From NCBI GenBank assembly GCA_965195285.1, contig CBDAFS010000039.1:74882-138881 (forward strand): a DNA stretch of 64,000 nucleotides, read 5' to 3'. The notes below the pieces were generated by a model, which worked only from the letters and a program-made list of their open reading frames with translations, was not told the DNA's origin and did no database searches. A program made the translations under genes and the position numbers. The first letter of the stretch is position 1. Every line of letters starts with the position of its first letter. The DNA comes from an uncultured Aminicenantes bacterium. Lineage in GTDB: Bacteria > Acidobacteriota > Aminicenantia > UBA2199. Below, piece after piece: positions 857 through 12,900 of the stretch.

Positions 857-1981
857 TTATTCATATATTTGAAACTTCCCACCCCTTACAATTTTGATTA
901 CAGCTTGTTGAATCACATCACCATTTTTATCAAATGTTGTATCACCAACAATTCCTGGATAATGCTTTACTGTATATATATAATTTTTAATACTTTCCGC
1001 AGTTAATTCAGCATTTGATTCTAATATCGCCAATGATATAATCTTAATAGCATCATAACTCAAGGCAGCAAAAATATCTGGTTCCACATTATATTTATCT
1101 ACATATTTTTTTACAAATTTTTTGATATTATGGGCATTACTTTTTGGATCATAAGTTCGAGCTGAATATATAACACCTTCGGCAGAATCACCTGCAATCT
1201 TAAGAATCTCAGGATCCTCAAACATCACAGTGCTTAAAAACTGTTTGTTAATGTCAAGCTCTCTTGATTGTCTAAGTAATTGCGCTAGTTCTTTATAGCC
1301 GATAATATAGATTGCATCTGGATTATACTTTTTTATTTTAGATAATTGTAAACGAAAATCTGTAGTTCCTTGATCAAAAGTTTCTGAAATCAAGATTTCT
1401 CCGCCTAATTTTATATAATTTGTGGTAAATACATCTTTTATTCCTAAGCCATAGTCATTATTTACATAAAGAATAGCAACTTTTTCCAATTTCATTTTTC
1501 TAATTGAAAATTCAGCCATAATATTCCCTTCAAAAATATCAGATGCACAATTTCGAAAAATATAATCACCAGCATTAGTTATTTCAGGTGCAGAAGATGT
1601 TGGAGAAAGTAATACAACTTTGTTTTTATTCAAAATTGGCGATACTGCCAAAGTCACACTACTGAACAAACCACCAATTATAACTGGTACATTATGTGTT
1701 GATATCAACATTTGAACTGCTAAAACACCTGTTTTTGGATCACCTTTTGAATCTTCAAAAATTACTTCGATTTTTTTCTTAGTACTTTTTTTTTCATTTA
1801 TTTCATCAATAGCAAGATTAATAGCATTTTTTGCTGTTTCCCCATATTTAGCACCATCTCCAGTTAAAGGCATAATAGCGCCAATCTTTATTACAGTTTC
1901 CTCTTTTATTGGTTTACAACTTTGAGCACAAATAATCAACAATACTAAACAGACTGCTAATGAATAATTTTTTTTACTCAT
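857..1981 (-). CDS. LivK/LivJ-like ABC substrate-binding lipoprotein
   Basis: Lipobox-like AQSC, IKIGAIMPLTG, EDSKGDP, YIFRN, NNDYG, TDFRLQL and TFDKNGD motifs; GGAGG RBS. Confidence 0.88.
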   Translation of the reverse strand: MSKKNYSLAVCLVLLIICAQSCKPIKEETVIKIGAIMPLTGDGAKYGETAKNAINLAIDEINEKKSTKKKIEVIFEDSKGDPKTGVLAVQMLISTHNVPVIIGGLFSSVTLAVSPILNKNKVVLLSPTSSAPEITNAGDYIFRNCASDIFEGNIMAEFSIRKMKLEKVAILYVNNDYGLGIKDVFTTNYIKLGGEILISETFDQGTTDFRLQLSKIKKYNPDAIYIIGYKELAQLLRQSRELDINKQFLSTVMFEDPEILKIAGDSAEGVIYSARTYDPKSNAHNIKKFVKKYVDKYNVEPDIFAALSYDAIKIISLAILESNAELTAESIKNYIYTVKHYPGIVGDTTFDKNGDVIQQAVIKIVRGGKFQIYE

Positions 1982-2132
1982 AAAAACCTCCCAACAACCT
2001 TAATTATAAAATTAATTAAATCAAATTCAAAAAAAAAAGTCAAATTGAAAAAAGTATTTTCATAAATTAATATACATAAACATTTAAATAAGAAGAATTG
2101 AATAAATTCGATTTAAAATCCCAATTCAAATA

Positions 2133-2161
2133 TTGACAAAAAAAAAGAATTTATTAATAAT
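2133..2161 (+). promoter_or_regulatory. putative sigma70 promoter of the methyltransferase operon
   Basis: TTGACA at 2133-2138, 17-nt spacer containing an A run, then AATAAT. Confidence 0.45.
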
Positions 2162-2221
2162 ACAAATGGGATACAGAATTTATTTCTTATAGTTAAAATT
2201 AGTTTTTTCAAAATAAAACAA

Positions 2222-3454
2222 ATGTATTACATAGAACTATTTTCAGGTGCCGGTGGATTATCCGAAGGTTTCATAAAAGCAGGGTTTAAACCAATAGCCC
2301 ATATTGAGATGGATAAAAATTCATGTTGTACATTAAAAACCAGACATGCTTATCACTATTTAAAAAAAAAGAGGAAACTGGATATATATCAATCCTATTT
2401 AAAAAAAGAAATATCACGCGAAGATTTGTATTCAACAATCCCTGATGATTTAATTGAATCAATTATAGAGACAGAAATTACAGAAAATAATCTAAAACTT
2501 ATTTTCAATAAAATAAAATATTTTCAAAAAAGTAAAAGTATATCAGATATTGATTTAATTATTGGGGGCCCTCCCTGTCAGGCATATTCAACCATTGGAA
2601 GAGCAGCAACAAAAAACAAAAAGTCTTTTGACCTTAGAAATTATTTGTATCAACTATACGGTCGTTTTTTATTGGAATTCAAACCAAAATTATTCTTATT
2701 TGAAAATGTACCGGGTATAAAAACAGCAGGAAATGGTCAGTATTATTGTAGTTTGAAGGACGAATTCAGAAATTTTGGATATGAAATTGAAGATAGAATG
2801 CAAAATGCTGCAGATTATGGCGTCATACAGAGAAGAGAAAGAGTTATCATAATTGGCTGGCGGAAGGATATACAGTTTAGATATCCTGAATTTGAGAATA
2901 TTGAGAATAAATGGACGGTTAAGGATATATTATTCGATTTACCTGAATTGAAAGCTGGAGAATCAATTAATATTGGAAAGTATATAAGTAAACCATCTGA
3001 ATATATAAAAATGTTCAATATCCGTAATGGAAGTGATATTTTGACCCAACATATAGCTAGACCTCATAATAAAAAAGATTTAAGAATTTATAAACTGGCA
3101 ATTGAAAAGTGGAACAAAAACCATAAGAGAATAATGAATTTCGAAATTCCAGACAAAATTAGAACCCAGAAAAACATTTCATCATTCCTTGATCGATTTA
3201 AAGTTGTATCAAAAGATGATTTATCACATACATTAATAGCTCATATAGCAAAAGATGGACATCATTATATTCATCCGGATATTGAACAGTTAAGATCTAT
3301 TAGTATTAGGGAAGCAGCAAGGATCCAATCTTTCGAAGATAATTACTATTTTGAAGGCCCAAGAACTTCTATTTTTAATCAAATTGGAAATGCAGTCCCT
3401 CCACTCTTGTCCTATGCTATTGCTTCAAAAATAAGGGATATTATAAATGTCTAA
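2222..3454 (+). CDS. dcm: DNA (cytosine-5)-methyltransferase
   Basis: Motif I ELFSGAGG, catalytic motif IV GGPPCQ, motif VI ENV, motif VIII QRRER, motifs IX-X REAARIQSF...QIGNAVPP. Confidence 0.96.
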   Translation: MYYIELFSGAGGLSEGFIKAGFKPIAHIEMDKNSCCTLKTRHAYHYLKKKRKLDIYQSYLKKEISREDLYSTIPDDLIESIIETEITENNLKLIFNKIKYFQKSKSISDIDLIIGGPPCQAYSTIGRAATKNKKSFDLRNYLYQLYGRFLLEFKPKLFLFENVPGIKTAGNGQYYCSLKDEFRNFGYEIEDRMQNAADYGVIQRRERVIIIGWRKDIQFRYPEFENIENKWTVKDILFDLPELKAGESINIGKYISKPSEYIKMFNIRNGSDILTQHIARPHNKKDLRIYKLAIEKWNKNHKRIMNFEIPDKIRTQKNISSFLDRFKVVSKDDLSHTLIAHIAKDGHHYIHPDIEQLRSISIREAARIQSFEDNYYFEGPRTSIFNQIGNAVPPLLSYAIASKIRDIINV

Positions 3455-5543
3455 AGAGCTAGCTTTTAAGCCCAAGGCAAGATTATTGTTACAATTAGGT
3501 GAACAACTAATCCGTAATGAAAGCATAGCACTTATGGAAATTATCAAAAATTCATATGATGCTGATGCCTCTAAAGTATCAATATCCATGAAAAATGTTG
3601 ATGACACAAAAAAAGGTGAAATAATCATTGAAGATAATGGTATCGGAATGGATGAAAGAATTATAGAAGATGTATGGATGCAACCAGGAAGTAATTATAA
3701 ATCATCATTATTTGAAAAAAGAGTTAGAACCGTAAAATATAAAAGATTACCAATAGGAGAAAAGGGAATTGGAAGATTTGGGGTACACCGTCTGGGTCAG
3801 GAAATTGAGATAATCAGCAAGAAAGAAGGTAAAAATGAAGTTTATTTAAAAATTAATTGGAGTAAATTTGAGAAAGATGACTTTTTGTCAAATATAAAAG
3901 TAAATTTATTTGAAAGACTACCTCAATATTTTCTTAAGGGAAATACAGGTACTAAAATAATAATTAATAAACTACGAAAATCCTGGAGTCGTATTGAAGT
4001 GAGAGAATTATATAGATCAATAAACACTTTGAATTCCCCTTTTAAATCATATGACTCTTTCGAAGTTGACTTTTCAATTGATAAAAAGAAATGGTTAGAA
4101 GGACTTCTTTCATTTGATGATATAAAAAAATATGCCCTTTATTATTCCATAGCCTCTATTGAAGGAAATGAAATCAAAGATTTCAAGTATGAATTCCGTC
4201 CCTGGGATACAATGGTAAAACTAAATGAAAGGAAAGTTGAAGATAAGCATATCAGGATGGTAAAAAAGATTTATGATGAAGAAAAAAGAAAAAATGTTTA
4301 TGTTGATATTGATCTAAATAAATCTAAAATAGGAAAGATAAGTTTTGAGATTTTAATTTTCGATAGGGAAAGAAGAATATTATCTTTAGGAGTTACCGAT
4401 AGAAAAGGATTTGATGAATACCTAAATGAAAATGGTGGTATAAGGGTTTTCAGGGATGGAATTAGAATATATGATTATGGTGAAAAAAGTAATGATTGGC
4501 TTGACCTTGACATAAAAAGAGTTAATCGACCCGGGGAAACAATTAGTAATAATCTTGTTATGGGTGCAGTCTATCTTGATCGAGAAAGTAGTACTGATTT
4601 AGTTGAAAAAACAAATAGAGAAGGTTTCATTGAAAATAATGCGCTATCTGAATTTATATTGGCTATTGATTTTGCTTTAAACAATATTTTGACATATAGA
4701 AGTATTGATAAAAATAAAGTCAGAACAATATATAGTAATATTGATACAAATGAACCTGTTACTGAAAATTTGCGAGAACTGAAGAACAAAATAGAAAAAA
4801 ATATTGAAAAAGGGGAATTTAAAAAGGAACTATTAAAAACAATAAAAAACATTGATAAAGATTACAAATATATAAAAGAGATTTATGTAAAAAGCGCTAG
4901 TGCTGGTTTAAGTCTTAGTATTGTCATCCACGAAGTTGAAAAAATTTTAGCAGAATTGGTAAAAATAGTAGAAGCAACAGGATCAAGAGAAAGAATAAAA
5001 TTTCTAGTAAACCACCTCGATAAAATTGTTAATGATTATGCAACCATAATTAAACAAAGCAAAAAGGAAAAAAGTAATCTAAAATCTCTCATCGATCAAT
5101 CTCTTTTCAATTTAACCTATAGGATTAAGGCACATAATCTGAACGTAATCAGATCTTACGAAAAATATAAAGAAAATCCAGTTGTTACATGCGCACAAAA
5201 TTTGGTAATAAGCGTAATCATGAATATCATTGATAATTCAATCTTCTGGATAAATTATGCAAATAGACAAGTAAAAAAACTATATATCACATTAACCGAT
5301 GAAATACCGGAACATACTTCAATATTAATTGCAGATAATGGTCCGGGATTTCATATTTCTCCAGAAGACGCAATAAAGCCCTTTATAACGGAAAAACCAG
5401 GAGGTATGGGGCTAGGATTACATCTCGCAGATGAAGTTATGAATGCACAGGGCGGAAAACTATTATTTCCTGAAAAATTTGATTTCAAGCTACCAGTAGA
5501 CCTTCAAAATGGTGCAAAAATTTTACTAGCTTTTAAAAATTAA
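3447..5543 (+). CDS. MORC/Hsp90-like GHKL ATPase fused to a C-terminal histidine kinase
   Basis: N-terminal GHKL motifs EIIKNSYDA, DNGIGM, GEKGIGR, GTKI; C-terminal H-box IVIHEV, N-box NIIDNS, G1 DNGPG, F/G2 PFITEKPGGMGLGL; no TM segment; overlaps dcm by 8 bp. Confidence 0.88.
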   Translation: MSKELAFKPKARLLLQLGEQLIRNESIALMEIIKNSYDADASKVSISMKNVDDTKKGEIIIEDNGIGMDERIIEDVWMQPGSNYKSSLFEKRVRTVKYKRLPIGEKGIGRFGVHRLGQEIEIISKKEGKNEVYLKINWSKFEKDDFLSNIKVNLFERLPQYFLKGNTGTKIIINKLRKSWSRIEVRELYRSINTLNSPFKSYDSFEVDFSIDKKKWLEGLLSFDDIKKYALYYSIASIEGNEIKDFKYEFRPWDTMVKLNERKVEDKHIRMVKKIYDEEKRKNVYVDIDLNKSKIGKISFEILIFDRERRILSLGVTDRKGFDEYLNENGGIRVFRDGIRIYDYGEKSNDWLDLDIKRVNRPGETISNNLVMGAVYLDRESSTDLVEKTNREGFIENNALSEFILAIDFALNNILTYRSIDKNKVRTIYSNIDTNEPVTENLRELKNKIEKNIEKGEFKKELLKTIKNIDKDYKYIKEIYVKSASAGLSLSIVIHEVEKILAELVKIVEATGSRERIKFLVNHLDKIVNDYATIIKQSKKEKSNLKSLIDQSLFNLTYRIKAHNLNVIRSYEKYKENPVVTCAQNLVISVIMNIIDNSIFWINYANRQVKKLYITLTDEIPEHTSILIADNGPGFHISPEDAIKPFITEKPGGMGLGLHLADEVMNAQGGKLLFPEKFDFKLPVDLQNGAKILLAFKN

Positions 5544-5561
5544 ATAGGGGGTACAATATTG

Positions 5562-6890
5562 ATGTATCATATTGATATACCTAAGAATGGATCCGTAGTA
5601 ATTATAGATGATAAAATCAAAGAAGTTATACCTTTATTTAATATACTTTCAAAAGCTGGAATTTCCTTTACTTATTATTCAGGTACTGATCTTGAAGAAT
5701 TACCTGAAAAACCTATCCAAACGATAAGGGCAGTTTTTCTTGATATTCAATTAATACCTGCTTTAAATGCTCATAGCTATTCACAAATGGCTCTAAATTT
5801 GCTTGAAAAAATTATTCCAGACGATAATGGTCCTTATATTCTGTTAATCTGGAGTACAAATCAAAGGCAATATGCAGAAACACTTGAAGCACAGATTATA
5901 GGCCCTAATTATTCAAGAAGACCAGCAATAATAATACATTTAGATAAAATAGATTATTTTAAACAAGAAATACTACAAAAAAATAGTAACACACAAGAAG
6001 TGAAATTTATCCCTAAATCTGATGCATTTAAATCTATCACAAAAAAAATAAATTCTGAATTAGAAAAGGTTAAGGTTTTCCACCTTTTCACCTTATGGTC
6101 CGATATAATAAATAATTCTGCAAATGAACATGTAAACAATTTTCTAACTCTATTTCCTTATGATAATCAATGGCAAAATAATCTGAAGAAAACAATATTT
6201 AAATTAGCAAAAGCTGTTGCGGGTGATACAATTAATAATATAGAAGATGATGAAAAAATCAAATACGCTTTTTTTTCTTTAAATAGAACATTAATAGATA
6301 CAATCGAAAAAAATACTAATCTTAATTTCAAAATCAGCTTAAAAAACATTAAAAATGGAGTAATTAATCAGTCGATTATAGCAGATATAAATTCAAAATT
6401 ACATCTAATGCTAATAAATAGTGATTGGAAAATTAAAACTGGTAACCTTTATATTATTCCTCAAAACCACACAAGAATATATTCAGAACATTTGGATCTA
6501 ATTATTTCTGAAAGAAATTTCAAAGCAACAAGATGTGAAGAAATAAAACTTAATAGACCAAAACTATTTAGACTGGATATAACTCCAGTTTGTGACTATG
6601 CACAGGATAAAGGATATGTGAGATTTCTATATGGTTTTATTATTGATTCAAGATTTGAGGATGAGGTTAAAAAGAAAAATTTTAATAATTATGTTAGTCC
6701 ATTATTATACATTAATAACAAAATTGTGTTTCTATTCATTGATTTTAGATTTTCAAACTCTGTCCAAAATGAAAAAAAATTCAATATAAAACTAAAACCA
6801 AATTTTGTTGTAAAAAAGGAGATCATTACAGATATGCAAACACACTTTTCACATTATATAAATAGACCTGGGATTATCAAAGTAGAGTGA
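5562..6890 (+). CDS. response-receiver domain protein with uncharacterised C-terminal domain
   Basis: Receiver residues VVIIDD, FLDIQL, IWST, LDK; C-terminal TGNLY...ITPVCDYAQDK; AGGGG RBS before ATG 5562. Confidence 0.78.
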   Translation: MYHIDIPKNGSVVIIDDKIKEVIPLFNILSKAGISFTYYSGTDLEELPEKPIQTIRAVFLDIQLIPALNAHSYSQMALNLLEKIIPDDNGPYILLIWSTNQRQYAETLEAQIIGPNYSRRPAIIIHLDKIDYFKQEILQKNSNTQEVKFIPKSDAFKSITKKINSELEKVKVFHLFTLWSDIINNSANEHVNNFLTLFPYDNQWQNNLKKTIFKLAKAVAGDTINNIEDDEKIKYAFFSLNRTLIDTIEKNTNLNFKISLKNIKNGVINQSIIADINSKLHLMLINSDWKIKTGNLYIIPQNHTRIYSEHLDLIISERNFKATRCEEIKLNRPKLFRLDITPVCDYAQDKGYVRFLYGFIIDSRFEDEVKKKNFNNYVSPLLYINNKIVFLFIDFRFSNSVQNEKKFNIKLKPNFVVKKEIITDMQTHFSHYINRPGIIKVE

Positions 6891-7660
6891 AAAAGAAAAG
6901 TCCTGGTTGGTCTTATAATGAACTTTTGGTCGCCTTTAATTTGTACTGTAAAATTCCTTTTTCGAAAATAAATTATAGAAAAAAAGAAATAGTTAAGCTC
7001 GCAAAATTGATTAATAGGACCCCATCAGCAGTTGCATTAAAACTTGCTAATTTTTCAAGGTTTGATCCAGAACTAAAATCCCGTCAAATTTCAGGTATGA
7101 CGCATGGAAGTAAAGAAGAAGAAATAATATGGAATGAATTCAATGAAAACCAGGAAAGATTTGTTTATGGGAGTGAGAAAATACTTGCTCATTATAAAGA
7201 TCAAACACTTGAAAAATCTTTTGACCTGGATATTGAATTGCTTGTAAAAGATGGAAAAGAACGTGAGGCAATTGTAAAAATGAGAGTGAATCAGAGTTTC
7301 TTCAGGAAAATGATTCTGGCGTCATATAACAATATGTGCTGTATAACCGGAATTTCTATATCCGATTTACTGGTGGCCAGTCATATAATTCCATGGTCTA
7401 TTGATATAAAAAATAGAATGAATCCAAAAAATGGCATTTGTTTAAATGTTTTACATGATAAAGCTTTTGATAAGGGGCTGATAACCATTACTCCGGATTA
7501 TAAAATAATGATATCACCTCAATTAAAAAATAATAGGAACAAGTTTTCAGAATTATTTTTCTTAAAATATGAAGAATCTAAAATAATTCTACCACAGCGA
7601 TTCTTTCCGGATATTGAATTTTTAAAATATCATAACAAACACATCTTTCAAAAAAATTGA
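6887..7660 (+). CDS. HNH endonuclease (putative restriction enzyme) with N-terminal helical domain
   Basis: RVNQSFFR...CCITG...ASHIIPW...NPKNGICLNVLHDKAFDKG HNH signature; 4-bp overlap with upstream gene. Confidence 0.88.
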   Translation: MKKKSPGWSYNELLVAFNLYCKIPFSKINYRKKEIVKLAKLINRTPSAVALKLANFSRFDPELKSRQISGMTHGSKEEEIIWNEFNENQERFVYGSEKILAHYKDQTLEKSFDLDIELLVKDGKEREAIVKMRVNQSFFRKMILASYNNMCCITGISISDLLVASHIIPWSIDIKNRMNPKNGICLNVLHDKAFDKGLITITPDYKIMISPQLKNNRNKFSELFFLKYEESKIILPQRFFPDIEFLKYHNKHIFQKN

Positions 7661-8295
7661 ATAAGCAACTAAAAAAATCAAGAAGAATCTTAATAAAAAA
7701 TTGGGATAAATATAAAAGAGATTTCATCTGGAGATACTTTAAAGATCCTTATAAAATAATGATTGCTGAATTTATGCTCCAGAGGACAAAAGCCCCTCAG
7801 GTAGAACCGGTATATAAAAACTTTCTGGAAAAGTATCCTGATGTTTTCATTCTTTCTAGAGCAAAACATAAATCAATTTCAAAATTTACTACAAATCTAG
7901 GATTACATGGGAGAAGCCGGAACTTTATTGAAGCTTCGAAATTTATAATAAAAAAATATACTGGTAATTTCCCATCTACCAGAAAAGAATTGTTAAAAAT
8001 TCCGGGTATCGGTGATTATGTTGCTGGAACTATTCTTACAATATGCTTTAATAAACAGGAATATGTTATAGATAGTAATATTGCCAGATTCATTAATCGT
8101 TTTTGGGGCTTAAATTTATCAGGAGAAATAAGAAGAAAAAAAATAATAATCTCACTTGCAACAGAATTGTTTAAATATAAAAATACAAGAGATTTATTAT
8201 TCTGCTTATTGGATTTTTCAGCCTTAATATGTAAACCCCGAAATCCAGTATGCGAAACTTGTGTTTTGAGAAAACCTTGTTTCTTCTATCAATGA
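7657..8295 (+). CDS. HhH-GPD DNA glycosylase, short MutY/Mig (G:T mismatch) type with 4Fe-4S loop
   Basis: WR...DPY...EFMLQRT, HhH LKIPGIGDY, catalytic IDSN, C-x6-C-x2-C-x5-C; no MutY C-terminal 8-oxoG domain; 4-bp overlap with HNH gene. Confidence 0.85.
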   Translation: MNKQLKKSRRILIKNWDKYKRDFIWRYFKDPYKIMIAEFMLQRTKAPQVEPVYKNFLEKYPDVFILSRAKHKSISKFTTNLGLHGRSRNFIEASKFIIKKYTGNFPSTRKELLKIPGIGDYVAGTILTICFNKQEYVIDSNIARFINRFWGLNLSGEIRRKKIIISLATELFKYKNTRDLLFCLLDFSALICKPRNPVCETCVLRKPCFFYQ

Positions 8296-9929
8296 GAATC
8301 TTTTTCGGTTTTTAGTTTCTTGTATTTGAAAAAATCTCCGCTTTCGTCGACGATCCGGCGGTACCAGTCTTCCGGGTAACCGGGGTGTTTAACCTTGTTC
8401 AACTCATTTTTGACATTGCCATCCAGGTATTTGAAAATTAAAAACTCACCCAATTTTTTCCAGCTTTTCACCGTCGATTCAGCTATTTTGATTGAATATT
8501 TATTGAGGTATTCCCTGGACAGTTGCGAAGACTTTTTATAAAGCTCCAAAGCCGCTTTTTCAATCTCCGGCTGATTGGACATGAAATTTCCTTCCAGCTG
8601 ACGCTGGACTCTTTGTATATCCTGAATCATATCCGAATATCGTGAATAAGCATAATTCGAGACAAAGTTGAAGACCCAGAAAGCCGAATCCCAGTTGAAA
8701 TGATTGAAATCAGCAGTTCCCACGGCATAGGCTTTTGGAATCTCGCGGATACTGCAATACATGGGCACATATACAGTGCTATATGTATCATCTACCGAAA
8801 ACCAGATTATCCCTCCAACCACATCCGGAAGCCAGGACCTGGACTGGGTCACAAAAGAAAATCCGGTTTGCTGGGTGGAGGTAGCCCTTTCATTGAAATA
8901 TTCTACATCATCCACTTTCCAGGTTAGGGGACGCCAGCGGTAGGGCAATTTATAAGGTCCGGCCCCTACTCCCCGGGTCATATCCAGTTCACTTCCTTCA
9001 AAATGATCCCTCATCAGCTCCATTACATCCCTTACCGATAATTTCTTATCCGGTTTAATCCACAGGGGCATGGGTTGGGCTCCGTCAACTCCCTTGATAA
9101 AATCAGATGAAAGATTCAAGGACGGAGCTACCCGTCTGAACATACTCCAGACTCTGGCTTCACAGAAACGAAGGCCACCGAAATCCAGAGGGGCATAGGC
9201 ATCGACAAAACTGAAATCTTCATCCTTTCCTTTAAAATATCCTTTGTCCCTGGCAAATGAAATGACATCCTTGGCATACAGGCAATTTTGTTTATCATTC
9301 AAAGGAAACTGCCGGATTCTGGCCTGATTGGCATGGGCGCAAACATATCCATCCGGAATCAGTCGGGCCACCCAGACTGCCCCTTTGTTATCAGGTCCTT
9401 TGCCAATGATCTCCATGATCCATACTTCATTCTTATCTGAAATGGAAAACGATTCACCGGAACTGCAATACCCGTATTTTTCAACCAGATCACCAATTAT
9501 CAATACGCCTTGGCGAGCGGTTTTGGCCCGCTGAAGCATGATGTACATCAGACTTCCGTAGTCCATAACACCCTTAGGATCCTTCAATTCCTTGCGTCCG
9601 CCATAGGTGGTTTCACCGATTGCAACCTGATACTCATTGATATTACCGACAACCGAATAGGTCTGTTCAACCTGTTTGATTTTTCCCAAATACTTTCCAG
9701 TATCCCATTCATATATATCCAGAAAAGACCCCTTGATATGACGGGCTGCCGGCGTGTAATACAATTCACCATAGAGGACATGCGAATCTGCCGCATAAGT
9801 GATCATGGTACTTCTGTCAACTGAAGCGCCCTTGGTAATCAAAAAATTGGTGCATGCCATTAGCTCAAAATCCAACCATAAAACCATTAAAATGAGAATA
9901 AATATTGTTTTGAAAATTTTAGCAATCAT
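8289..9929 (-). CDS. C69 family dipeptidase (secreted Ntn-hydrolase)
   Basis: Signal peptide then ACTNFL (N-terminal Cys nucleophile), GETTYGGR, GESFSISD, HANQARI; AAGGAGG RBS before ATG 9929. Confidence 0.88.
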   Translation of the reverse strand: MIAKIFKTIFILILMVLWLDFELMACTNFLITKGASVDRSTMITYAADSHVLYGELYYTPAARHIKGSFLDIYEWDTGKYLGKIKQVEQTYSVVGNINEYQVAIGETTYGGRKELKDPKGVMDYGSLMYIMLQRAKTARQGVLIIGDLVEKYGYCSSGESFSISDKNEVWIMEIIGKGPDNKGAVWVARLIPDGYVCAHANQARIRQFPLNDKQNCLYAKDVISFARDKGYFKGKDEDFSFVDAYAPLDFGGLRFCEARVWSMFRRVAPSLNLSSDFIKGVDGAQPMPLWIKPDKKLSVRDVMELMRDHFEGSELDMTRGVGAGPYKLPYRWRPLTWKVDDVEYFNERATSTQQTGFSFVTQSRSWLPDVVGGIIWFSVDDTYSTVYVPMYCSIREIPKAYAVGTADFNHFNWDSAFWVFNFVSNYAYSRYSDMIQDIQRVQRQLEGNFMSNQPEIEKAALELYKKSSQLSREYLNKYSIKIAESTVKSWKKLGEFLIFKYLDGNVKNELNKVKHPGYPEDWYRRIVDESGDFFKYKKLKTEKDSH

Positions 9930-10097
9930 GATTTTTAAAACCTCCTTTGCTTTCAAGTGAATGATCAACGAATTTTGAATACTTAAAAAACGCATCAACT
10001 ATTTTATCTAAATCAAAATCCGAAGTAAAGAAAATAATTTGTTGCAATAGTAAAATATTTACTTTAGAATGAAATATTATTTACATTCATCTTTATC

Positions 10098-11693
10098 ATG
10101 AAGAAAATCAAGGGTTATAATTTAAAAAAAATTGTTTATCTAGACGGTATACGACTCAGGAATGCAATCCTGTCCAGTCTAGCTTTAATAAAAAATAAAA
10201 AGAATTATCTGAATAAAATAAATTTTTTTCCCATACCTGATAAAGATGCCGGAACAAATTTTTTCCATACATTGAACTTCATCGTTTCCGAACTATACTT
10301 TCTTGAGGATCGTTCGGTTACCTTAATGAGCCATCAATTATCCAAATCTGCCCTATCCGCTGCCCAAGGATATTCAGGTACTATTCTGGCCCAGTTCTTT
10401 CAAGGTTTTGCCCAGGGATTTTCAGGACAGGTCAGAATTTCAACAGTGGATTTTGCGCTTGCTTCACAAAAAGCCTCCAAAGCAGCTTATGCGTCACTCT
10501 CCGAACCTATAGAAGGCACAATTTTAAGTGTTATGAGAGATTGGGCCAATTCGGTTTCCAAAATCGCCGAACAAACCGATGATTTTGTCGAACTTCTAAA
10601 TATGAGTTTGCTAGAGGCAAAACAATCCCTGGCTGAAACAAAAAAAATATTACCGGTTTTGAAAAAGGCCGGTGTGGTTGATGCAGGTGCTCAGGGATTT
10701 ATTTTTTTACTGGATGGAATCCTGAATTTCATAAAAAAAGGAAATTTAAAAGATCTTCGAACTTTATCTCGAAATAATAAATCCAGTCAAGGTCATAAAT
10801 ATGAAAAAAAAATTCACGATTATTCAGGTGCTCCGCCAGTAGATGAATTTGGCATCGTGACCGACTCATCGTGTGATCTTCCCGATCATTATTTAATAAA
10901 TTATCAGATCCATGTAATTCCACTCAAAATCATATTTGGATCCGAAACCTTTCTGGATAAAGTGCAGATCACTCCAACTGAATTCTATAATAAATCGATC
11001 AAATCACCGATACATCCCAAAACCTCACAACCGTCATTGGCAGATGTCACCCGGCTATTCGATGAGATTGTACCCAAATACAATCATATCCTGTCCATTC
11101 ACATCCCCCGGGCAATAAGTGGAACCCTGTCGGTCGTTGAAAAAGCAGCCCAAAAATACGGGAAAAAGATCACCTGCATAGACGGAAAAAATATTTCAGC
11201 CGCTTTGGGACTGGTGATCATGGAAGCGGTATATGCAATAGAGAAAGATCTATCCCGGGAAAAGGTTATTGATCGAATTGAACAATCAATAGATAATATT
11301 AAAATTTTCATTGTTTTGCCAACGGTAAAATATCTGGTCAAGGGAGGAAGGCTCAGTAAATCCAAGGGATTCATCGGACGTCTGCTTCGGTTGAATCCGA
11401 TTTTATCTTTTGATACTCGGGGACATATTGTGCCCCTGTCCAAAGCATTTGGAAACAAAGCAGCCTTGAAAAAAGCATTTAAAATCGTACAACTAGCGGT
11501 TAAAGATTATAAGCGAATTAAATTCATGATTGCCCATGCCAATGCCCCGGTGAAAGCCAGGTGGGTATCGGTCAAGCTGTCCGGATTGTTTCAGCTGCAA
11601 GAGGAGATAGAAATTGTTGAGGTGGCCCCGGTTCTGGGTGTACATGTCGGACCCGGAACCGTTGGATTCGGATTTATCGGTTATCATCAATAA
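10098..11693 (+). CDS. DAK2 (FakA-like)-DegV (FakB-like) fusion protein
   Basis: INFFPIPDKDAGTN, EGTILSV, VVDAGAQG (DAK2); IVTDSSCDL, KTSQPS, YLVKGGR, HVGPG (DegV). Confidence 0.88.
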   Translation: MKKIKGYNLKKIVYLDGIRLRNAILSSLALIKNKKNYLNKINFFPIPDKDAGTNFFHTLNFIVSELYFLEDRSVTLMSHQLSKSALSAAQGYSGTILAQFFQGFAQGFSGQVRISTVDFALASQKASKAAYASLSEPIEGTILSVMRDWANSVSKIAEQTDDFVELLNMSLLEAKQSLAETKKILPVLKKAGVVDAGAQGFIFLLDGILNFIKKGNLKDLRTLSRNNKSSQGHKYEKKIHDYSGAPPVDEFGIVTDSSCDLPDHYLINYQIHVIPLKIIFGSETFLDKVQITPTEFYNKSIKSPIHPKTSQPSLADVTRLFDEIVPKYNHILSIHIPRAISGTLSVVEKAAQKYGKKITCIDGKNISAALGLVIMEAVYAIEKDLSREKVIDRIEQSIDNIKIFIVLPTVKYLVKGGRLSKSKGFIGRLLRLNPILSFDTRGHIVPLSKAFGNKAALKKAFKIVQLAVKDYKRIKFMIAHANAPVKARWVSVKLSGLFQLQEEIEIVEVAPVLGVHVGPGTVGFGFIGYHQ

Positions 11694-11712
11694 TTAAACA
11701 AAACAGGAAGGC

Positions 11713-12900
11713 TTAAGTGGATTTATTAAGTTCCAGACGATTGATGATATGTTGGTATTTCTTTTCAATCACCGGCCAGGAATAGTTGTCCTGAAAAAAT
11801 TGCACGCCATTTTCACCCAGCCTGGATCGAATCCCGGGGTTCCCCTGCAACAATAACACAATGGCCTTGAATTCCTCATAATCGGAATACCATAATCCCG
11901 CATTGCTGCGTTTGCATTGACCCTGGAGTACTTCGGTTCTTCCATTGGCAACCACCGGCTTCCCAATGGCCCAGGCCTCCAATGCCACCATGGAAAGCGA
12001 CTCAAACTGTGAGGGTATAATCAAAAAATCAGATCCTTTCAAGGCATCAAACTTTTCACTGTCAGATACAAATCCCAGATACCTGATTTTCGGGTGATCT
12101 GGAATTTCAATCAGTGATTTCCCCATCAGGACCAGGGTATAATCTATCTTCGTCTCCTCCAAGAATTTTAGATAAAATGAAAGCAGTTCCGGTATTCCCT
12201 TGTTTTCATCCAGGCGCCCGATATAGACAAAATAATTTTCAGGGATTTTGTATTTCTCCCGGAATACCCAAGGCGAAAATGAAGAGGGAATCTCCGAGCC
12301 CACACCCACGATATCTCCGATTACCGATTCATTTCCCGCCATTTGATTGATCATTGCCTTCTCTTCATGTGAATTGTAAACAATGGCTCCGGGTAAATTA
12401 AAAAAATTCTTGAACATCCTCAAATATATTACATCATCATGTTCGGCAGTGGGAACCAGAATTGATTTTTCCCGAAACCTGGTAATACCTTGAAAAGAAT
12501 GATAATAACGATATGAGAAAAAAATGAAATAATCAAATTCCCCTTCCCGGTTCTCCAGTTCTTTGATCAGGGCAGGTACCCTGGGTCCCTCTTCATCCAG
12601 CCAGGTTATTTCTTCCTCCAGGCTGTGTTCGTTGTTGAAAATAAAATTCTGAATTTTCCCGAACCGCTCCGGATCCCGGGTTTGATGGACATTAAAGCGG
12701 TTTACCCGGATACCATCCACTTGATCCTGACCCGGGGGGAAATGATGCTCCCAAGTAATGTAATCCAGGGCCGTGGTGGTAAAAACTTCAATTGCATAGT
12801 ATTTTGCCATTTTCTCGGTAATCAATTTGGCATGATATTCGGCACCCCCATTTATTTCCGAACCGTATCGCTGAACCACAATTGCAATTTTTTTAGCCAT
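11713..12900 (-). CDS. GT4 family glycosyltransferase
   Basis: GGAE near the N-terminus, GRLDENKG, PSQFESLSMVALEAW (EX7E). Confidence 0.9.
   Translation of the reverse strand: MAKKIAIVVQRYGSEINGGAEYHAKLITEKMAKYYAIEVFTTTALDYITWEHHFPPGQDQVDGIRVNRFNVHQTRDPERFGKIQNFIFNNEHSLEEEITWLDEEGPRVPALIKELENREGEFDYFIFFSYRYYHSFQGITRFREKSILVPTAEHDDVIYLRMFKNFFNLPGAIVYNSHEEKAMINQMAGNESVIGDIVGVGSEIPSSFSPWVFREKYKIPENYFVYIGRLDENKGIPELLSFYLKFLEETKIDYTLVLMGKSLIEIPDHPKIRYLGFVSDSEKFDALKGSDFLIIPSQFESLSMVALEAWAIGKPVVANGRTEVLQGQCKRSNAGLWYSDYEEFKAIVLLLQGNPGIRSRLGENGVQFFQDNYSWPVIEKKYQHIINRLELNKST

Follow-up and report, generated by a model that had tools for sequence, protein, structure and literature searches.

A methylase-kinase-receiver cassette in an uncultured Aminicenantes bacterium: a candidate restriction-modification-like defence system whose receiver protein has a predicted toxin-like fold

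Introduction

How could a two-component relay be keyed to DNA methylation? This question is raised by a five-gene operon of an uncultured Aminicenantes bacterium (contig CBDAFS010000039.1), which lies on the plus strand at 2222-8295 of the 64,000-nt stretch analysed here; this stretch is the window, and its coordinates are used throughout. The open reading frames (ORFs) of the operon encode, in order, a methylase (M), a kinase (K), a receiver protein (R), an HNH nuclease (H) and a glycosylase (G). Methylase-linked kinase-receiver cassettes are very common, with at least 540 K loci confirmed in a pattern scan of 185,579 species genomes (one genome per species), yet R has no match at all in Pfam, NCBIfam or PADLOC.

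An initial annotation, made from the sequence alone, viewed the five genes as one restriction system gated by a soluble phosphorelay and knew of no experimental work on their exact layout. Here we found that the operon is not a new system but a C5-methylase variant, not visible to the relevant Pfam models, of an already described and partly validated class. What this analysis adds is a conserved C-terminal domain of R that contains an invariant Cys-Asp pair and is predicted to have a CcdB/MazF-like fold. We consider the framework as a whole, namely defence operated through a relay, to be likely. The fuller reading, in which the locus is a horizontally acquired, restriction-modification (R-M)-like defence cassette with a three-gene core whose soluble relay releases a toxin-like effector, is in our judgement evenly balanced between true and false.

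Results and discussion

Methylase, kinase and receiver form the conserved core

The best 80 of the confirmed loci were kept for neighbourhood counts, in which ORFs were called crudely (longest non-overlapping frames of at least 70 aa) and labelled by jackhmmer. This survey of kinase neighbourhoods, which the initial annotation had proposed, revealed a tight coupling of the first three genes. Of the 75 loci with room downstream of K, 69 have R as the next gene, the K-R spacing ranging from -29 to +15 nt across related loci; of the 74 with room upstream, 56 have M as the gene just before K, and another 8 have it nearby. The other genes are much less constant: H is nearby in 12/80 loci, directly after R in 10 of these, and is missing from the neighbourhood in 68/80, while Vsr is nearby in 33/80 and G in 8/80, one or the other being present in 41/80 and neither in 39/80. 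The full M-K-R-H-G order was observed in a single locus of the 80 (L001). The five genes therefore do not make up one fixed system as had been proposed; the conserved core is methylase-kinase-receiver, and HNH nuclease, glycosylase and Vsr are optional add-ons. Other genes found after R encode AspBHI-like/Mrr, NOV_C, GmrSD, EcoO109I and XhoI proteins and a second HNH type, and the wider neighbourhoods contain AIPR, Z1, DUF4420, GmrSD, AbiEii, HEPN and Tn7-like TnsD/TnsE genes.

M (2222..3454, + strand, 410 aa) is a C5 cytosine DNA methyltransferase of the Dcm type (PF00145, 2.4e-60; TIGR00675, 2.8e-50). It carries the PCQ and ENV motifs, both of which are kept in 62/62 cassette methylases, so that it has the intact catalytic motifs expected of a classical Type II R-M methylase. 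The median identities of the related proteins to those of the window are 51% for M, 47% for K, 28% for R, 54% for H and 55% for G. Judged by these values, R appears to be the fastest-evolving member, with M and K conserved to a similar degree.

The loci span many bacterial groups and include 4 archaeal loci. Among 41 related genomes, K is present in 5, including this one, and is absent from the 3 congeneric genomes (70-91% complete); the sole close full-length K copy among the related genomes belongs to a different family and has 51% identity. On plasmids, 134 records match K, 9 of them covering at least 80% of its length, and a tblastn search of plasmids with R returned no match at 1e-5. The distribution of K is typical of mobile defence genes, and its patchiness indicates lateral transfer.

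K and R contain the conserved residues of a predicted His-to-Asp relay

K (3447..5543, + strand, 698 aa) is a soluble protein containing two GHKL modules, as was initially recognised. The first is an N-terminal GHL-type ATPase, matched by HATPase_c_3 at residues 27-152 (3525..3902; PF13589, 4.7e-22), and the second belongs to a histidine-kinase core composed of DHp and CA domains, the ATP-binding CA domain being located at residues 586-674 (5202..5468; PF02518, 4.5e-16). The predicted phospho-accepting His of the H-box and its adjacent acid, H495-E496 (4929..4934), are kept in 84/84 homologues. Both ATP sites are conserved to a comparable extent, with E31, N35, D63, G65 and G67 of the N-terminal site kept in 83-84/84 homologues and N593, D630, G632, G634, G653, G655 and G657 of the CA domain in 82-84/84. 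By these residues, K has the H-box His and the N, G1 and G2 boxes of a HisKA-type core. In a profile search of solved structures, residues 459-680 align to the DHp and CA domains of a sensor kinase (3a0r, 5.6e-06) and residues 520-674 to HK853. We found no Pfam sensor domain in K and no membrane-helix-like segment, since no 19-residue window of the protein reaches a Kyte-Doolittle value of 1.6 (maximum 1.46), in agreement with the earlier view that a membrane sensor is missing. At least 3481 of 8000 scored candidates are K homologues, and a 'sensor histidine kinase' of Kordiimonas shares 53% identity with K.

K had been described as MORC/MutL-like at its N-terminus and as a His-kinase at its C-terminus. 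The kinase part of this description stands, whereas MORC/MutL is a loose label: among solved structures, the first 130 residues match Hsp90-family ATPase domains best (HtpG, 3.2e-05), and the MutL match of the N-terminal module is weak (5.8e-04). Residues 14-193 also resemble the N-terminal part of BbrUII/HgiDII-family restriction enzymes (NF050001, 1.6e-25), with a score of 89.7 that lies well under the cut-off of 550. This common GHKL front part links the sensor half of K to the BbrUII/HgiDII enzymes, which act on specific unmethylated DNA sites. The other two thirds of K, in contrast, are a kinase core and not the rest of such an enzyme.

R (5559..6890, + strand, 443 aa) is a receiver-domain protein followed by a helical linker and the C-terminal domain described below. 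In the public copy, the gene starts at the ATG at 5562, which gives 442 aa. A word-indexed search found 29 relatives of R and an exhaustive search 1027 representative clusters at E<=0.001. The full-length structure model, built on 28 sequences, has a predicted local distance difference test (pLDDT) value of 85.1. Residues ~8-170 (5580..6068) form a CheY-like receiver domain, as indicated by fold and residue conservation, with D62 as the predicted phospho-acceptor. All Foldseek matches of this half at E<=0.001 are response regulators, and structural comparison with VIA aligned it to CheY 6tg7 over 119 residues (Z 10.0, root-mean-square deviation (rmsd) 2.9). Among 71 R homologues, D62 and K130 are kept in 71, D17 in 70 and D18 in 67, so that the (beta-alpha)5 fold, the acidic pocket and the conserved Lys of CheY-like proteins are all found in R, and the receiver call was right despite the lack of a Pfam match. 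Residues 172-262 (6072..6344) are three long helices by secondary structure, either a linker or a bundle, and have generic helical matches only (Z<=5.6). What remains of the restriction system gated by a soluble phosphorelay is a predicted His-to-Asp relay tied to a C5 methylase, without the unity of the five genes.

The C-terminal domain of R is predicted to have a CcdB/MazF-like fold

We modelled residues 172-443 of R alone, using 71 sequences, and obtained a pLDDT of 91.7 and a predicted template-modelling score of 0.85. In this model, residues ~290-438 (6426..6872) form a CcdB/MazF/Kid-like barrel. In a Foldseek search of this output domain against the PDB, 8 of the top 10 matches are MazF chains with probabilities of 0.96-0.99, at E-values of only 0.0096-0.042. 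A VIA scan of 48,161 chains, which does not depend on Foldseek, gave MazF, CcdB, Kid or CptN as all of its top 12 matches (Z 5.7-7.9), and when the best 1000 Foldseek matches were re-aligned with VIA, the top 50 entries all belonged to the CcdB/MazF superfamily. The best structural match is CcdB 3tcj_B, with 103/103 residues aligned (Z 8.4, rmsd 3.2), and PemK-like phage proteins are also among the high-ranking matches in a BFVD search. The predicted fold of this region thus covers whole chains of the CcdB, MazF, Kid (PemK) and ToxN toxins, at Z values of 5.7-8.4 that are moderate. Unlike these toxins, the domain of R sits behind a receiver and a helical linker, and the operon has no separate antitoxin gene.

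The C-terminal region is also conserved in sequence. N278, G295, C345 and D346 are invariant in 71/71 homologues, and K351, R355, G359, R436 and G438 are kept in 68-70/71. A full-text literature search for a receiver domain combined with a MazF-like or CcdB output returned one unrelated paper only.

Some further observations concern this domain. Atlas look-alikes of the C-terminal domain are unnamed proteins 118-180 aa long. An Atlas cluster in which 18% of the members bear PF19192 resembles the C-terminal part of R with a score of 0.80, which is a weak lead. Stand-alone short versions of the output domain were sought as well, and 0/64 candidates qualified at E<=0.001 in a word-indexed search of limited reach.

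The operon is a variant of a described class

The view that no comparable layout is known is outdated. A computational study (Bellieny-Rabelo, Pretorius, Moleleki 2021; PMC8011034) described a class of soluble proteins, HEF_HK, made up of HATPase_c_3, a new H-box domain and HATPase_c. In its passages on this class, the partner is a receiver-like protein, Response_reg_2, with no other domain and a linkage of 91.6% in 644 regions. A C5 methylase is usually upstream, HNH_2 is the commonest nuclease, Vsr is frequent and paraMORC ATPases are linked; the class occurs in Bacteroidetes and many other phyla, with a Kordiimonas example shown. The operon of the window agrees with these passages in most respects: K has the soluble kinase-like architecture with an H-box His and acid, R is an adjacent receiver-like protein keeping the acidic pair, the Asp and the Lys, and a C5 methylase lies upstream with an HNH_2 nuclease nearby. 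It differs in that a glycosylase replaces Vsr and in that R, in contrast to a receiver protein given there without an output domain, has a predicted CcdB/MazF-like fold.

The Pfam families derived from this class do not recognise the cassette. PF19191 (HEF_HK, threshold 24.1 bits), which is expected to match between the two ATPase domains, has no match in K at E<=10 and none in the Kordiimonas K homologue at 1e-4, and in this genome and four other cassette genomes it gave sub-threshold matches only, none of them at the coordinates of the K gene. A distant Acinetobacter relative of K scores 18.8 bits with PF19191, which is also sub-threshold, at the expected position; the 637-aa neighbour of this relative is not an R homologue. 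PF19192 (Response_reg_2, threshold 27 bits) matches neither R nor any other protein of this genome at E<=10, and none of 70 R homologues at E<=0.01. Because the models miss K, R and their homologues while the architecture is identical, we regard the cassette as a branch outside PF19191 and PF19192 as Pfam delimits them. Literature searches on the names of these Pfam families found no functional study.

A related system, Ambrosia, protects against phages (van den Berg et al., bioRxiv 10.1101/2025.09.30.679545). According to the parts of the preprint that describe it, AbrR-AbrA-AbrB-AbrC-AbrD was validated in P. aeruginosa and consists of an XRE regulator, an N6-adenine methylase, a kinase/HSP90-like ATPase, a winged-helix receiver protein and a type IV-like HNH protein. 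Each of the five proteins is needed: phage defence is lost on mutation of a conserved residue in its predicted functional domain, and also with the D60A change in the receiver. Expression of reporters placed in the operon is very low at rest and becomes strong during infection, the methylation does not protect phage, and the system is mainly confined to Gammaproteobacteria. Ambrosia and the operon studied here have the same order of methylase, kinase/HSP90-like ATPase, receiver and HNH protein, a likeness drawn from the description, and the HNH protein of Ambrosia is, like H, of a type tied to modification-dependent enzymes. The operon of the window has neither the XRE regulator, which is missing both in and beside it, nor an N6-adenine methylase; it encodes instead a C5 methylase, a predicted toxin-fold output and a glycosylase.

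Prokaryotic MORC and paraMORC ATPases (GHKL+S5) were reported earlier in R-M operons together with cytosine methylases, Vsr, and HNH or other nucleases, and were proposed to manipulate DNA in R-M-like defence (Iyer, Abhiman, Aravind 2008; PMC2292703). The passages of that paper on paraMORC describe neither a histidine-kinase core nor a receiver partner, whereas in K the ATPase is fused to a complete DHp and CA kinase. No catalogued system was matched in the PADLOC 2023 library, where the matches of K are confined to the N-terminal part of a Type II enzyme model and a weak one to MzaB, and R has none.

A possible phosphorelay-controlled effector

From these observations, a mechanism for the cassette can be proposed. 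M would methylate host cytosines and thereby mark self DNA, and its activity on host DNA can be argued because a gene for repair of 5-methylcytosine (5mC) deamination, Vsr or G, is nearby in 41/80 loci. K may act as a cytoplasmic sensor whose N-terminal GHL ATPase engages DNA lacking the methylation of the cassette, or another infection cue. Its kinase core would autophosphorylate on His495 and pass the phosphate to Asp62 of R, both of which are conserved. Phosphorylation of the receiver could then release the C-terminal CcdB/MazF-like domain, an effector that would arrest growth or target nucleic acids. A minority of cassettes, including the one studied here, contain H, and in these the HNH nuclease may be enabled by phosphorylation as well.

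The initial annotation had offered an abortive effector as an alternative to the nuclease. By the predicted fold of its output domain, this effector may be R itself. We favour R in this role because the core is without a recognised nuclease in most loci and because of the toxin fold; that R is the effector and H an optional second arm nevertheless seems to us possible but doubtful. A more specific proposal is that R is the first response regulator with a CcdB/MazF-type toxin output, restrained by its own receiver and linker in place of an antitoxin, and that M-K-R is a methylation-keyed abortive-infection switch in which the GHL ATPase reads unmethylated DNA and the His-Asp relay frees an RNase-like or gyrase-poison-like effector, with HNH and other genes as bolt-on parts. 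We place this proposal on the unlikely side. If true, it would add a phosphorylation-gated toxin both to bacterial immunity and to the outputs of response regulators; if the toxin reading fails, the cassette is an ordinary variant of a described R-M-like system. The toxin-like fold turns the 'unknown effector' of R into a concrete experimental question.

Several points weigh against an R-based effector and against the defence reading in general. An hhalign comparison of 71 R domains with 29 PemK/MazF proteins gave a probability of 0.43%, and a profile of the output domain had 0 matches among all PDB sequences, which leaves the C-terminal domain without a link to MazF at the sequence level. Because no sequence or profile relationship was detected, we name R CcdB/MazF-like in fold and do not file it in that family. 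The Z values of 5.7-8.4 fall within the range that the tool terms 'middling', and a common fold says nothing of function. The invariant Cys-Asp pair is not known as a catalytic feature of MazF or CcdB. Among the PADLOC models of 2023, none assigns K or R to a defence system. H may not be the classical restriction partner of M because its nearest solved enzyme, 6yex, is one that we take to be modification-dependent. In Ambrosia, finally, the receiver is described with a winged helix and the output seems to follow another logic, with the relay apparently increasing operon transcription (bioRxiv 10.1101/2025.09.30.679545).

The same logic could apply to the operon of the window. The K-R relay would then be purely regulatory: phosphorylated R would activate transcription of the operon in infection, the HNH or another nuclease would kill, and the C-terminal domain of R would be a DNA-binding or dimerisation module. 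The common order of methylase, kinase, receiver and HNH protein speaks for this explanation, as do the infection-induced reporters, the loss of defence in D60A and the winged helix assigned to the receiver in the Ambrosia preprint. However, we found no helix-turn-helix or winged-helix family in R or in 70 R homologues, and DNA-binding regulators are absent from the structure matches listed for the C-terminal part of R, which are either toxin folds or generic helices. In addition, 68/80 cassettes have no HNH nearby, so that the effector must lie within the M-K-R core, and no XRE regulator gene accompanies the operon. We therefore consider a purely regulatory relay unlikely.

H and an ordinary Type II system

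H (6887..7660, + strand, 257 aa) is an HNH nuclease, as was called initially, with an HNH_2 domain at residues 151-201 (PF13391, 3.9e-13). H166, N182 and D191 are invariant in 12/12 sequences. The N-terminal 120 residues are conserved as well, and for this N-terminal domain we found no family and no informative Atlas neighbour. H is matched along its whole length by two PADLOC HNH models, one at 3e-93 and one, labelled as a Type II restriction enzyme, at 4.6e-48. Among solved structures, residues 122-214 match 6yex, an 'HNH endonuclease' (1.6e-10), which we take to be VcaM4I, an EVE-HNH enzyme dependent on 5mC or 5-hydroxymethylcytosine. The predicted complex of R and H scored 0.00 (mark 0.32), which weighs neither for nor against binding.

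The Type II label of H, a PADLOC model named 'Type II nicking endonuclease' that matches G at 9.5e-41, and the complete catalytic motifs of M are what would be expected of an ordinary Type II R-M system, in which M, its cognate H and G as the 'V' gene belong together and the kinase-receiver pair is inserted, being either unrelated or modulatory. This explanation is hard to reconcile with the position of K and R between M and H in overlapping or near-abutting frames and with the recurrence of M-K-R without H in most loci. M and K are also similarly conserved, as expected if they travel as a unit, and the catalytic domain of H is nearest to an enzyme that is presumably modification-dependent. 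We thus regard an ordinary Type II system as quite improbable here.

G as a companion of the methylase

G (7657..8295, + strand, 212 aa) was correctly called a mismatch glycosylase. It is a Mig-like T:G mismatch DNA glycosylase with an HhH-GPD domain and a 4Fe-4S loop, and residues 3-212 align end to end with PDB 1kea, a 'Possible G-T mismatches repair enzyme' (3e-39). It has the GIG hairpin, the catalytic Asp D139 and a C-x6-C-x2-C-x5-C loop and is without a MutY C-terminal domain, as in the Mig/MutY branch of HhH-GPD proteins. TIGR01084 scores 148.9 bits on G, under its cut-off of 286.5, which is expected because the MutY C-terminal tail is missing. We take 1kea to be Mig.MthI, whose partner on an archaeal plasmid is a GGCC methylase. 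Like this type of glycosylase, G is alignable over its full length, has the HhH-GPD domain, the catalytic Asp and the iron-sulfur loop, and lies in an operon with a C5 methylase; it differs in that it closes a kinase-receiver cassette, in the place of the Vsr of 33/80 sister loci. G would remove T:G mismatches arising from deamination of 5-methylcytosine, which is the job of Vsr in most sister cassettes. From its family, G is probably not a part of the defence but serves the methylase in a housekeeping role, as a substitute for Vsr.

An alternative outside defence is a mobile module for epigenetics and repair. The MutL/Hsp90-like ATPase of K would here aid very-short-patch-type repair (Vsr or Mig) of 5mC deamination, and the relay would signal damage to the DNA or its state of methylation. 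This alternative would fit the presence of Vsr or a Mig-like glycosylase near K in 41/80 loci and the functional link between MutL and Vsr noted in PMC2292703, but we consider it highly improbable, given that neither repair gene is nearby in 39/80 loci, that the toxin-like fold of R, the pattern of lateral transfer and the defence-island neighbours fit conflict systems better, and that the related Ambrosia defends against phages (bioRxiv 10.1101/2025.09.30.679545).

Variant cassettes in other genomes

In two loci, an AspBHI-like/Mrr enzyme lies directly after R, at 11693-12838 of locus L009 and at 9381-10520 of locus L016 (RE_AspBHI_N, 2e-41 and 2e-38). The AspBHI-like family depends on 5mC. 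Such a pairing of a cytosine methylase with a methyl-dependent nuclease recalls the puzzle raised for Ambrosia, that of a system that 'targets its own modification'. A search for Ambrosia-type loci by gene order around one locus labelled as gammaproteobacterial matched that genome only (1/286).

In loci L019 (4492-7896) and L060 (4494-7810), K comes after a DUF4420-AIPR pair, which belongs to the methylase-linked Z1/AIPR set, with no R following and no Dcm detected; the kinase is therefore occasionally joined to other R-M-like modules. In two Firmicutes genomes, the cassette is found directly after Tn7-like TnsD and TnsE (L063, 4311-7740; L077, 4317-7738), which suggests that these cassettes travel as transposon cargo.

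Two plasmids carry rearranged versions. On a Burkholderia glumae plasmid (L081, 5959-11405), the order is permuted to K-R-Vsr-M, and R is a clear family member (2.1e-38). The annotated R begins at the phospho-acceptor Asp, probably because of a wrongly called start or a 5' truncation of the gene. On a Klebsiella variicola plasmid (L083, 4706-9575), a K homologue is annotated as three coding sequences beside an N6 methylase, with two short hypothetical genes after them; the arrangement resembles a decayed cassette of an adenine-methylase type. In addition, two matches in a phage collection (H16 and H17) are unannotated faecal contigs of 5-6 kb labelled 'Bacteriophage sp.', with near-full-length K homologues of 33.6% and 28.9% identity.

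Operon layout and flanking DNA

The ORF coordinates bear out the five co-oriented, coupled genes of the initial annotation, with intergenic spacings of -8 nt for M/K, +15 nt for K/R, -4 nt for R/H and -4 nt for H/G. No terminator-like site was found on the plus strand inside the operon, and a search of its borders found no tRNA or integrase and no notable direct repeats on either side. The AT-richness attributed to the operon holds against the DNA that follows, with a GC content of 0.288 for 2222-8295 (0.26-0.30 for the single genes) and 0.431 for 8296-64000, but the low-GC tract is wider than the operon and starts before it, as the upstream region 1-2221 is equally AT-rich (0.263).

The top-scoring plus-strand promoter-like site within 1900-8500 is TTGACA-17 nt-AATAAT at 2133..2161, with 11/12 consensus matches and ~60 nt upstream of the M start. 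As the region contains 34 promoter-like sites against a mean of 41 in shuffles, and hence no excess, this promoter is a guess based on position.

The AT-rich tract upstream of the operon also contains a 264-aa ORF without assignment at 45-839 and a divergent gene for a periplasmic binding protein at 857-1981 (Peripla_BP_6, 4.2e-55). Downstream of the operon, a 531-aa ORF at 10098-11693 fuses a Dak2 domain (2.2e-31) with a DegV domain (6.9e-72).

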